DNA of 64,000 nt from positions 64,001 through 128,000 of IMG/VR virus record IMGVR_UViG_3300045988_146774; one strand, written 5' to 3'. Below are positions 25,241 through 27,800 of the stretch, one piece after another (the first letter of the stretch is position 1; each line of letters starts with the position of its first letter). The translations under genes and the position numbers were made by a program. The notes beneath the pieces are model-generated. The model did no database searches. It was not told the origin of the DNA and was given only the letters and a program-made list of their open reading frames with translations. The stretch comes from a virus.

Positions 25241-26181
25241 CATTAGAAGAAGCGTTATCAGCTTCGGAAGTAAATGACACAGGTGCTGACGAAGTTATTA
25301 CCATCGACAACGACCTAAGAAAAATCACCATACCTGCAAGCATCACTCTTCTTGGTGTGGTATCAGATGAAAATGTGCAAACATTACATTTCCAGATGCC
25401 GAAAACCTATAAAGGACTTGACCTGTCGGAGTTTGCTATTCGCATCAACTACATGAATGCAAATAATGTCGGTGATACATACGCTGTGGATGATAGCGAA
25501 ATCTCAGGTGAAAGTATCGTATTCACATGGACAGTTGGACGTGTGGCATGTATGTATAAGGGAAATACAAAATTCATAATCTGTCTTAAGAAAAAGGACA
25601 CTTCTGGCAATGTGCTGAAAGAATTTAACACATCGTTGACGAGTCTTCCGGTATTGGAAGGACTTGAAACAACCGAAGCTGTTGTTGCTGAAAATCCAGA
25701 CATCATCGAGCAGATACTCACGAAGATTGAAAAGCTGACGCAAATATCACCAGAAGATATTGCCAGTGCGGTGTCTGCCTATATGGAAGCAAATCCTATA
25801 GACATCCCAGACACTCTTCCCAATCCACAAGCTCTAACCATAAAATACGGCAACAAAACCCACACATACGATGGAAACGAAGCCCTTGCAATCACAATCG
25901 AGACAGGTGGTATAGAGCGTATCGAAAAACTTGCTACAGACACCACAGTAACCTTAGAGCCTAACAAACTCTATGTATTCCCAGAGATGGAGTCGCTTAC
26001 TTACACTATAGCCGAGGGCACAGGAGAGATACATTTCATTTTTAAATCTGGTGCAACAGCTACAAGGGTGGTACATCCATCCAATGTCAATATCGGAAAC
26101 TTTTCGGTCGAGAGCAACAAGGTATATGAGGTATCAATTTTAGAGGGATTACTTACATCCCAGAATTGGAGTGTGAGCTGA
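25237..26181 (+). CDS. baseplate/tail-fibre-associated structural protein (BppU-N-like, tentative)
   Basis: GGAGGTGA RBS. ..IDNDLRKITIPASITLLGVVSDENVQTLHFQMPKTYKGLDLSEF..IVFTWTV resembles the N-terminal module of baseplate upper proteins as I recall it. Confidence 0.4.
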   Translation: MTLEEALSASEVNDTGADEVITIDNDLRKITIPASITLLGVVSDENVQTLHFQMPKTYKGLDLSEFAIRINYMNANNVGDTYAVDDSEISGESIVFTWTVGRVACMYKGNTKFIICLKKKDTSGNVLKEFNTSLTSLPVLEGLETTEAVVAENPDIIEQILTKIEKLTQISPEDIASAVSAYMEANPIDIPDTLPNPQALTIKYGNKTHTYDGNEALAITIETGGIERIEKLATDTTVTLEPNKLYVFPEMESLTYTIAEGTGEIHFIFKSGATATRVVHPSNVNIGNFSVESNKVYEVSILEGLLTSQNWSVS

Positions 26182-26642
26182 TGGAACGGAGAAGGACATT
26201 GGGAAATGAGGTGGAAAGTGTGATGAGTGAAGAATATGAGCTTGTCGGTACTGCAAGCATAACGGAAGAAACGGCTACTGTAGAAATACAGTTGAGCAAA
26301 CCTTGCACAGATTTGTATATGTTTTGTGAGAATTTAAAAGCAACGGCTAATTCACAATTAATTATTGGTATAGGTAATAACAATACTATATCAGGTACAA
26401 ATAGTGAATTATCAGCAAATGTACAAAATACCATTCAGCATATACGAAAGATAGGAAAGACGTGGATGAGGACGGGAAATAATCATGCGCAGTATCCATT
26501 ATCTACTGCCGCGTCAACAATGTATACTGCAAAAATAAATGCAAATAAGCAAATGCCAGAACAAATTTCTACAATTACATTACTAGCAAATGTGGGCAGT
26601 GCTAAAATCGTATCTGGCACTATAGAAATCTACGGGAGGTAG
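26181..26642 (+). CDS. tail-module paralog A (MERRRT.. family, hypothetical)
   Basis: ATG overlaps the upstream stop (gctgATGg). It shares the N-terminal M-x-RRR motif, ~155-aa length and C-terminal ..I-x-(I/L)(Y/L)GR ending with the next two genes. Confidence 0.55.
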   Translation: MERRRTLGNEVESVMSEEYELVGTASITEETATVEIQLSKPCTDLYMFCENLKATANSQLIIGIGNNNTISGTNSELSANVQNTIQHIRKIGKTWMRTGNNHAQYPLSTAASTMYTAKINANKQMPEQISTITLLANVGSAKIVSGTIEIYGR

Positions 26643-26645
26643 CAG

Positions 26646-26674
26646 TTGACATGAAATACAGAATAAAACACAAT
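26646..26674 (+). promoter_or_regulatory. candidate promoter for paralog B
   Basis: TTGACA 26646-26651, 17-nt spacer, CACAAT 26669-26674. The microsatellite begins 4 nt after the -10 box. Confidence 0.4.
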
Positions 26675-26677
26675 CTT

Positions 26678-26705
26678 GTCAGTCAGTCAGTCAGTCAGTC
26701 AGTCA
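26678..26705. repeat. tetranucleotide microsatellite (GTCA)x7
   Basis: Seven perfect GTCA units, counted directly. Confidence 0.95.
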
Positions 26706-26755
26706 GCGGATCATAAGCTAGCTGATTCGCTCCTGTCAAGTTGGGCGGTGGAATT

Positions 26756-27223
26756 ATGAACCGCCGGAGAACAATGCTTATGAATGGACAGGAGGAAGAT
26801 GGAATGAAAGAATGGGGTGAATTGCTGAATGAAAGCAAAGAAGTAACAGACCAAAAGACTGTAGAATTTAATCTTGCTAATGCTGAAAAACATGAGGAAT
26901 ATTGGATATACATACAGATAGAAAAGCATACCGGAGCAGAACAATGTAAAGGTAATTGTAAACCGATAATAAACGGAGCATGGATTGGATATTACAGTTT
27001 TAATGTGGATTTCTCGGGAGACCAGTATGTATCGTATCATATTTGGACAAATCCAATAAGTGTGTTGGAAATGTCGAAAGGTATGAGTAAGCCACAGTTT
27101 AATACTGTACAAATATTAAGACAGATAGAAGCTATTGGAAATGAAACAGGTACAGGAAAATTCGCATTAGAATTTCCAGCAAATTATACGGGAAAGATAA
27201 CAGCAAAAATACTCGGTAGATAG
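26756..27223 (+). CDS. tail-module paralog B (MNRRRT.. family, hypothetical)
   Basis: ATG 26756 follows GGTGGA. It shares EDGMKEWGEL with paralog C (EVEEMKEWKTL) and the C-terminal KILGR ending. Confidence 0.55.
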   Translation: MNRRRTMLMNGQEEDGMKEWGELLNESKEVTDQKTVEFNLANAEKHEEYWIYIQIEKHTGAEQCKGNCKPIINGAWIGYYSFNVDFSGDQYVSYHIWTNPISVLEMSKGMSKPQFNTVQILRQIEAIGNETGTGKFALEFPANYTGKITAKILGR

Positions 27224-27227
27224 GAGG

Positions 27228-27255
27228 TTGAAATAAAAATGGTAAATAGTAAAAT
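27228..27255 (+). promoter_or_regulatory. candidate promoter for paralog C
   Basis: TTGAAA 27228-27233, 16-nt spacer, TAAAAT 27250-27255. The microsatellite begins 5 nt after the -10 box. Confidence 0.45.
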
Positions 27256-27259
27256 CCTA

Positions 27260-27291
27260 ACAGACAGACAGACAGACAGACAGACAGACAG
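27260..27291. repeat. tetranucleotide microsatellite (ACAG)x8
   Basis: Eight perfect ACAG units, counted directly. Confidence 0.95.
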
Positions 27292-27341
27292 AGCTTAGCT
27301 GATTCTAAATCCTGTGTCAAGTCTGAGATTGCCGTGGGAAT

Positions 27342-27800
27342 ATGTTGAGGCGGCGAATGATGATGGCAAAGGCACAGGAGGTAGAAGAGATGAAAGAATG
27401 GAAAACATTAGATACCGTTGTTCTGGAAGAAGATGCGAAAATTATTACAGTCAAAATTCCAGATGCAAATGAAATAATAGTACTATTCTGTGGGAGAGAG
27501 AACAACGGTGATGATAGCATAAGTGGCACAGGAGTGGGGTCTGATGGACTAAGAATAAATAATAAAGGAGTATCAAATTATCCATTGACATATCTGAGGA
27601 AAGCAGGAAGTGAATATTATACAAAGATTACAGCGGAAATTATAAATGGATTTTTGGATGGAACAATATCAAAAAAAGGAAATAATGAACTTGTAGGATT
27701 TCAAAATCTTTTGACGAATGTAGAATCCATAAAAGAAATATCGCTCGTTACGAACAATTTATTCAAAACAGGCAGTAAAGTAATGGTATTATATCGTTAG
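27342..27800 (+). CDS. tail-module paralog C (MLRRRM.. family, hypothetical)
   Basis: ATG follows GTGGGA. Paralogous to A and B. Confidence 0.55.
   Translation: MLRRRMMMAKAQEVEEMKEWKTLDTVVLEEDAKIITVKIPDANEIIVLFCGRENNGDDSISGTGVGSDGLRINNKGVSNYPLTYLRKAGSEYYTKITAEIINGFLDGTISKKGNNELVGFQNLLTNVESIKEISLVTNNLFKTGSKVMVLYR

Follow-up and report, generated by a model that had tools for sequence, protein, structure and literature searches.

A candidate repeat-phase switch of translational coupling before tandem tail-module genes in a phage genome

Stochastic switching of host-recognition modules within a phage population is known from invertible tail-fibre segments (Mu Gin, P1 Cin) and from diversity-generating retroelements (BPP-1), where dedicated enzymes carry out recombination or reverse transcription. 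Translational coupling by stop/start overlap (ATGA, TGATG), as in genes of the trp operon and many phage operons, relies on an upstream stop codon that overlaps the downstream ATG, the downstream ribosome-binding site (RBS) being weak or structured. The tetranucleotide contingency loci of Haemophilus influenzae and Neisseria (e.g. lic1, CAAT; mod, AGTC) carry pure 4-base tracts of about 5–20 units near the 5′ end of a gene, which shift the reading frame and leave one of three phases ON (reviewed in PMC2651432 and PMC11868660). Here we describe a locus that resembles each of these systems in part. It lies within positions 64 001–128 000 of the IMG/VR virus record IMGVR_UViG_3300045988_146774 (a stretch of 64 000 nucleotides, hereafter the window), in which three tandem tail-module genes (A, B and C) encode proteins of 152–155 amino acids, and B and C are each preceded by a short leader open reading frame (ORF) containing a tetranucleotide tract. 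We consider it probable, though well short of certain, that B and C each stand under a portable repeat switch that acts on translation, i.e. a phase-variable translational coupling.

Some cassettes in related phages (type 1, below) work exactly like the Haemophilus and Neisseria loci. The window differs from these bacterial systems, where the tract lies in the gene, in that it belongs to a phage and its tracts lie in a separate leader ORF, and the product therefore never carries a repeat-encoded peptide. Unlike Mu Gin, P1 Cin and BPP-1, slippage and the ribosome would suffice here, and unlike classical coupling, the stop/start overlap would be conditional on the phase of a hypermutable repeat. 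In the pil1 locus of Streptococcus gallolyticus, GCAGA repeats in a leader peptide are combined with attenuation via a transcription terminator (Danne et al., 2014; PMC3894217). As here, the repeat sits in a translated leader ORF with its own RBS, and unit number sets the leader stop and the fate of the downstream RNA structure and operon; unlike pil1, we found no terminator, the leader ends on the main start and a conserved double stop filters the frames. Campylobacter phages carry hypermutable polyG tracts (Sorensen et al., 2021, Cell Rep 35:109214, as cited in PMC12823448 and PMC11868660). To the extent described in those citing papers, these are likewise phage-encoded simple repeats diversifying genes related to receptor binding, but they are homopolymers within the coding sequences of myoviruses, whereas the present locus has 4- or 5-base units, leader-ORF coupling and tandem cassettes. 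Contingency loci of T2, T4 and other coliphages (Gomez, Barrick and Waters, 2025 preprint; PMC12633550) share the concept of bet-hedging through polymerase slippage, but consist of homopolymer runs of at least 6 bases that are reportedly under-represented in tail fibres, in contrast to the 4- and 5-base units beside tail-fibre genes found here. A full-text literature search turned up neither a switch with 4- or 5-base repeats in a phage tail gene nor a case of translational coupling conditional on a repeat; the phage repeats found reported were homopolymers, in line with the preliminary description, which knew of no tetranucleotide tracts in phage tail genes.

The locus is made up of the following features, in the order in which they occur (aa, amino acids):
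25237–26181, + strand: 314-aa ORF, presumed tail-fibre-type partner, whose TGA stop overlaps the gene A ATG (cTGATGg)
26181–26642, + strand: gene A, a cassette without repeat switch, directly coupled to the upstream ORF, with its own Shine–Dalgarno sequence (SD) and no start hairpin
26634–26639, + strand: GGGAGG, SD of leader ORF B, within the last codons of A
26646–26674, + strand: sigma-70-like TTGACA-17-CACAAT, overlapping the start of leader ORF B (TTGACATG) and kept in relatives
26651–26716, + strand: leader ORF B at n = 7, 21 aa (ATG at 26651, stop TAA at 26714–26716)
26678–26705, + strand: (GTCA)7, hypermutable tract (3 to at least 21 units in relatives)
26719–26725, + strand: TAGCTGA, double stop of leader B, in which TAG shuts one non-through frame and TGA shuts the gene B frame
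26741–26768, + strand: predicted hairpin (core GGCGGU/ACCGCC) that contains the SD-like GGCGGTGG together with the gene B ATG
26756–27223, + strand: gene B, beta-sandwich cassette, whose start (ATGA) overlaps the through-frame leader stop
27222–27227, + strand: AGGAGG, SD of leader ORF C, overlapping the TAG stop of B
27228–27255, + strand: sigma-70-like TTGAAA-16-TAAAAT, spanning the start of leader ORF C
27239–27298, + strand: leader ORF C at n = 8, 19 aa (ATG at 27239, stop TAG at 27296–27298)
27260–27291, + strand: (ACAG)8, hypermutable tract (4–13 units in relatives)
27296–27302, + strand: TAGCTGA, double stop of leader C (from sequence and frame analysis)
27329–27356, + strand: second predicted hairpin, UUGCCGU/GCGGCGA, weaker and spanning the gene C ATG
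27342–27800, + strand: gene C, beta-sandwich cassette with essentially no SD, and a through-frame leader stop TGA at +4 (ATGTTGA)
27821–28471, + strand: DUF4376/tail-fibre-phrog gene downstream of C, with the same RBS module as repeat leaders elsewhere and no repeat

Both tracts were present as the preliminary description had claimed, TRF giving (GTCA)7.2 at 26678–26706 and (ACAG)8.2 at 27260–27292, each 100% pure. They are the sole pure tetranucleotide arrays within the 64 kb, and five-unit probes allowing up to 2 mismatches detected no such tract in 100 dinucleotide-preserving shuffles. Each lies within a short ORF with a strong SD and an ATG, GGGAGG preceding the ATG of leader B by about 9–11 nucleotides (nt) and AGGAGG that of leader C by 11 nt. 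The conserved leader reported earlier (TAGCTGATTC..TCCTGT(G)TCAAG..GTGG(G)AAT-ATG) was also found as described. We rebuilt both loci in silico with 2 to 14 units and followed the leader ORF in every phase. With n = 3, 6, 9 or 12, the leader of either gene runs through and stops on a TGA overlapping the main ATG (TGA 26757–26759, in ATGA at 26756; TGA 27346–27348, in ATGTTGA at 27342), and this stop/start overlap thus occurs in one of three phases. In the remaining two phases the leader stops 37–46 nt upstream of the main ATG, at or just before TAGCTGA, a sequence that comprises two stop codons four bases apart and shuts two of the three frames. Because its TGA is in the frame of the main gene, the leader cannot be fused to that gene. 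The window itself, with n = 7 (GTCA) and n = 8 (ACAG), has both leaders in the short phase, which we read as OFF.

Three other interpretations of these frames were rejected. N-terminal extension of B or C by leader read-through meets a frame shut by the TGA of the double stop (B) and, for C, additionally by TGA 27324–27326; stop-codon reassignment is ruled out by the long standard-code ORFs that fill the window; and a stem of TTGACA (before the repeat) with TGTCAA (after it), looping out the tract, has variants (TTAACA, TGCCAA) that are uncompensated. Rfam gave nothing relevant within 25000–29000.

The proposed switch would consist, in order, of a strong RBS and ATG, a leader ORF with a 4-base repeat, TAGCTGA, some 35–45 nt open in the third frame and a stop overlapping the main start. 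Polymerase slippage during phage replication would add or remove repeat units. In the one phase of three that we infer to be ON, ribosomes translating the leader would reach the main start and unfold the local hairpin; their termination on ATGA or ATGTTGA would be followed by re-initiation on the main gene. In the two OFF phases they would stop 37–46 nt upstream, and the main RBS would stay weak or sequestered, with poor translation. Gene A would stand outside the switch, coupled directly to the upstream fibre-like gene, and a single burst could yield particles with differing cassette combinations.

Relatives of the three proteins were numerous (252, 60 and 16 proteins with A, B and C as queries respectively), all unnamed or 'hypothetical'. 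From contigs encoding such relatives, an IMG/VR protein scan and IMG/VR scans for (GTCA)5 and (ACAG)5 (more than 115 loci each), we collected approximately 300 loci, and a script classed every 4- or 5-base tract with an upstream SD and start codon. Cassettes of type 2 (leader ORF plus coupled start, as in the window) were represented by 69 instances, or 50 distinct alleles, on gut-type viral contigs, and those of type 1 (leader and tract fused in frame to an ...LRRRLL... body without its own ATG) by 15 distinct alleles. The repeat units were GTCA, GGTC, ACAG, GACA and ACAGC, and one to three switched cassettes occurred in tandem per genome. Unit length was 4 or 5 bases, i.e. not a multiple of 3, with the tract inside leader ORFs or 5′ coding regions.

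The three-frame behaviour of the leader recurred in every complete relative. A double stop was present in 33 of 35 distinct post-repeat leaders (TAGCTGA 13, TAGTTGA 10, TAACTGA 7, TAATTGA 2 and TAGCTAA 1). The through-frame stop overlapped the main ATG in all 35 (ATGA 19, ATGTTAA 8, ATGCTAA 4, ATGTTGA 2, ATGCTGA 1 and ATGTTAG 1), and at locus L161, where insertion of a Gly codon alters the context, the stop (TAG) is nonetheless retained. The double stop and the ATG were separated by 37, 40, 46 or 55 nt, a distance of 1 mod 3 in 33 of 33 cases, and indels there are therefore in frame; in contrast, every residue mod 3 occurs in the distance from tract end to ATG. Through-frame leaders of 33–34 aa were independently annotated by a gene caller in three ON-phase contigs (L003, L024 and L027). 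By these comparisons it is the reading frames of the leaders, beyond mere sequence, that are conserved. Two leaders (L105 and L129) lack the second stop of the motif (TAACTGC and TAACTGT), and the main-gene frame may be open there.

In-frame fusions to bodies lacking an ATG of their own, which define type 1, occur in L001, L050, L013 and L043; their mRNA must therefore contain the leader ATG, and ribosomes must cross the tract. With one base different, the window C leader (AGGAGGTTGAAA.AAAAATGGTAAATAGTAAAATCCTA) is the sole translation start of the type-1 genes in L001 and L050. Read from their frames, these sister cassettes are a classical frameshift switch, in which phase must decide whether the protein is made.

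Unit number ranged from 3 to at least 21 across the homologous loci. Of 22 groups whose 200-nt flanks are 100% identical on either side of the tract, 11 contained more than one unit number; several of the groups without variation consist of one contig retrieved twice. Loci encoding one identical protein (P0015) had GTCA tracts of 7, 11, 12, 12 and 14 units and ACAGC tracts of 9, 13 and 15 units, and two loci with identical flanks displayed reciprocal states (L082, GTCA 11 ON and ACAG 12 OFF; L145, GTCA 16 OFF and ACAG 8 ON). Comparison of relatives thus gives varying unit number between identical flanks, not invariance, and bears out the earlier suggestion that the tracts act as slipped-strand contingency elements; from this copy-number polymorphism we infer slippage within populations.

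Contigs often end inside the tracts, and two scaffolds have N gaps there, which suggests length heterogeneity, although k-mer limits could also explain it. The same breaks would favour an assembly or sequencing artefact behind the repeat numbers and their differences, an explanation that we regard as extremely improbable given that changes between identical flanks comprise whole units and that over 100 contigs, stemming from independent studies and assemblers, share the position of the tract. The N gaps lie exactly at the downstream edge of GTCA and GGTC tracts (L001, 2846–2950; L028, about 2949–2963), and many Logan and ENA contigs begin or end within tracts.

The promoter-like hexamers of the preliminary description are where it had placed them (TTGACA-17-CACAAT, 26646–26674; TTGAAA-16-TAAAAT, 27228–27255). 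In the relatives TTGACA is nearly invariant and the −10-like element varies (CACAAT, CAAAAT, TAAAAT, TAGAAT and TACAAT). The tracts begin 4–5 nt 3′ of the −10-like hexamers and do not alter the spacing of the promoter elements. On this basis a real sigma-70-type promoter has to be considered, with the tract spanning the transcription start and initial transcribed region and unit number tuning transcription or the 5′ untranslated region. The hexamers are better conserved across diverged leaders than the intervening spacer, and their 16–17-nt spacing is held even where the position of the ATG moves (L161). However, the −35-like element overlaps the leader start codon, the repeat is not located between −35 and −10, and promoter-like matches in this AT-rich region were not enriched (30 vs 23.3 ± 5.9 in shuffles). 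Moreover, a start site in the repeat would leave out the sole ATG of the type-1 fusions that use the same leader, and the double stop, overlapping stops and in-frame indels would go unexplained. We therefore regard transcriptional tuning as unlikely. The earlier placing of the tracts simply at the transcription start does not hold, given that they lie inside SD–ATG short ORFs, that the sequence downstream is built by frame and that in-frame fusions need the leader ATG.

The translation signals were compared as SD duplex energies, which, calculated against a Firmicutes-type anti-SD, were −11.7 kcal/mol for leader B, −15.0 for leader C, −13.2 for gene A, −11.2 for gene B (with the interrupted GGCGGTGG) and −4.2, effectively none, for gene C. 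The start of gene A is unstructured. The predicted hairpin of gene B (−12.6 kcal/mol, z = −2.25; 6 of 200 shuffles fold equally well) has both the SD-like element and the ATG inside it. Stem cells were paired in 76 of 78 cases in 13 B-type variants and in 84 of 98 in 14 C-type variants. Between the B-type and C-type stems, G:C to C:G and G:C to U:G changes occur at two positions, and the 3′ arms do not lie at homologous codons. The 3′ arm of B consists of CGC-CGG, the rarest two Arg codons in the long ORFs of the window (3.2% and 2.4%, with AGA at 52%; genome 33% G+C), which suggests selection on the RNA. Overall, the modelled start hairpin is supportive of coupling and not proven.

Several observations weigh against such a coupling. 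Gene B might be translated independently, as its SD-like GGCGGTGG is of moderate strength and well spaced. The hairpin of gene C (−8.8 kcal/mol, z = −0.86) is not better than those of shuffles, and covariation within each hairpin type is almost wholly one-sided or wobble, and therefore does not constitute independent proof of the hairpin. The hexamers are retained in leaders that have diverged, and some transcripts may therefore also begin within the repeat, without the leader ATG. The ON phase is no commoner than expected by chance (20 ON and 30 OFF among the 50 type-2 alleles; 4 of 15 type-1 alleles ON), and two-cassette loci with 0, 1 and 2 cassettes ON numbered 8, 8 and 2, exactly as chance predicts at p = 1/3, so that the state frequencies do not point to selection. 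In one group of close relatives only n = 4 and n = 6 were seen, both OFF, on either side of the ON value 5. The chance rate of ON states is compatible with fast unbiased switching and equally with no selection on phase.

This ON fraction, the usable SD-like element of gene B and the resemblance of the leader modules to shared recombination linkers on many different bodies would all fit hypermutable tracts without functional consequence, i.e. selfish or neutral linkers between recombining cassettes, with B and C expressed in any phase. We nevertheless hold this to be an unlikely account, if one to be kept in mind: diverged phages have pure tracts in an identical position although the unit takes five forms (GTCA, GGTC, ACAG, GACA and ACAGC), the frame-dependent layout survives stop-codon swaps and in-frame indels, phase must determine whether a protein is made from type-1 cassettes, and gene C has no SD.

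A switch of reversed polarity, in which a long leader represses the main gene (e.g. by occluding its start), or an attenuation-like control of termination, would have a precedent in pil1 (PMC3894217), and would suit the one population that showed only the two short-leader alleles. We found no + strand terminator-like site within 24000–30000, and hence no intrinsic-terminator-like site between tracts and genes; the start hairpins have no U-run. Gene C, moreover, has no independent SD for expression when uncoupled, and overlapping stop/start arrangements are classically activating. Reversed polarity or attenuation appears rather improbable to us, and phase-variable coupling with an activating through-frame leader is the reading that we retain for the products considered next.

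ORFs A (153 aa; MERRR..., C-terminus EIYGR), B (155 aa; MNRRR...MKEW, KILGR) and C (152 aa; MLRRR...MKEW, VLYR) are all present. The preliminary description had presented them as three genes of about 155 aa with shared motifs, and this stands for M-x-RRR in all three and KEW in B and C, but not for a common GR ending, which is missing in C. Paralogy is well founded for B and C, whose profiles match with 97.7% probability (E = 1.8e-12, 111 columns), while the A–B match is weak (63%) and A–C is undetectable (3.6%); all three have in common some 20 N-terminal residues, a module of the form M-x-RRR...(Q)E..M(K)EW. None of them had a Pfam or PHROG match, nor did the 314-aa ORF upstream, and exact-sequence look-ups of the B and C proteins returned no record. 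AlphaFold models of B and C (predicted local distance difference test scores of 83.4 and 82.6 respectively) combine an all-beta sandwich body with some 16 N-terminal residues modelled at low confidence. In Foldseek, the matches of B and C overlapped and were C-terminal domains of larger siphovirus proteins, most of them uncharacterised (template modelling [TM] scores 0.5–0.6) and a few labelled tail fibre, lambda Stf or collagen-repeat. The PDB matches were weak (TM score 0.5 or lower) and lectin-like or jelly-roll (ERGIC-53, galectins, a carbohydrate-binding module, a phage 80alpha baseplate chain and T4 gp9).

The locus is flanked by genes for tail proteins (DUF6558, a GDSL tail-fibre phrog, DUF4376/phrog_1348, gp58-like and DUF859), and in relatives the cassettes lie between a collagen-repeat fibre gene and holin/lysin genes. 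There, this N-terminal module and switch recur in front of many bodies that are unrelated to one another, and B-family bodies also occupy the first, unswitched position, so that the cassettes resemble exchangeable partners of the fibre gene before them. Judging by gene position and fold, the switched products, each a flexible N-terminal M-x-RRR...MKEW peptide with a varied lectin-like beta-sandwich body, probably serve as alternative parts of the tail fibre, with an accessory or receptor-binding role. On the same grounds the earlier proposal that switching would affect which paralogue joins the tail is plausible. Two side observations concern these cassettes. In one B-family protein, P0017 (186 aa), the C-terminus is directly continued by TDRQ repeats and then by the next leader, as if through a deletion between the ACAG in the last codons of B (ATAACAGCA) and (ACAG)n, or through misassembly. 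The RBS module AAGGAGTTGATACAAAAAATG of the DUF4376 gene (window 27800–27830) is almost identical to leaders before (ACAGC)n tracts in relatives.

If phase-variable coupling is correct, tail equipment would be diversified at every replication by polymerase slippage and the ribosome alone, with no invertase and no reverse transcriptase, as a third general route to host-range bet-hedging in phages that would help to explain how gut phages persist beside hosts that vary their own surfaces. It would also be a natural case of coupling conditional on reading frame, in which the N-terminus of the main protein is fixed at any repeat length, as classical in-gene repeats do not permit, and a clonal therapeutic phage stock might be phenotypically mixed. 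The tracts also break metagenome assemblies and mislead gene callers. A wider picture, which we put forward only tentatively, is that in probable Lachnospiraceae gut phages a portable frame-sensing switch has been recombined before many fibre-accessory bodies, with up to three per genome and up to eight particle types per lysate that differ in host-recognition equipment, and that, with the same repeats in phage DNA methyltransferase and PAPS-reductase-domain genes, slipped-strand phase variation would be a general phage strategy alongside inversion and retroelements.

The window belongs to a large Firmicutes-type phage genome with tape-measure-like ORFs and HNH genes, a tail module, an amidase endolysin, an integrase, NrdD, a ligase and helicases. 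A nucleotide search with 3.8 kb gave no match among 50 697 deposited phage genomes, and a protein search with B in deposited phages gave one match (25% identity) in an unannotated faecal phage. No relatives of B were found in a search of 185 579 species genomes, hence no prophage or host was assigned that way. The best full-length relatives of the endolysin (52–57% identity) are from Dorea, Extibacter and other Lachnospiraceae genomes, a weak pointer to a Lachnospiraceae host. The integrase (35756–37093, − strand) and the NrdD-type anaerobic ribonucleotide reductase (40221–42479, − strand) suggest that the phage is temperate and infects a strict anaerobe, yet the 185 579 species genomes yielded no prophage relative of B. 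Elsewhere in the window, the tape-measure-like ORFs (689 and 2301 aa; 4055–7075 and 12407–20893) are each followed by an HNH/homing-endonuclease ORF (6152–7075 and 19604–20893), and the tape-measure gene may have been split or invaded by homing endonucleases. The 2301-aa ORF contains a 51-nt tandem array of 3.6 copies (16934–17118), and a 45-nt array of 2.7 copies (9631–9751) lies in an intergenic or short-ORF region.

In-frame (ACAG)n/(GACA)n tracts, encoding 'TDRQ', were also seen near the 5′ ends of other phage genes on IMG/VR contigs (L218, L202/L249, L272/L279, L181, L182, L192, L220, L243, L246, L255, L281, L292 and L270). These genes include a D12 N6-adenine DNA methyltransferase (PF02086, E = 4e-29) and two families with a PAPS_reduct domain (PF01507), which, from sequence comparison, suggests that phages possess phase-variable DNA-modification genes. 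L272 and L279 have identical flanks, with 6 and 9 units respectively.

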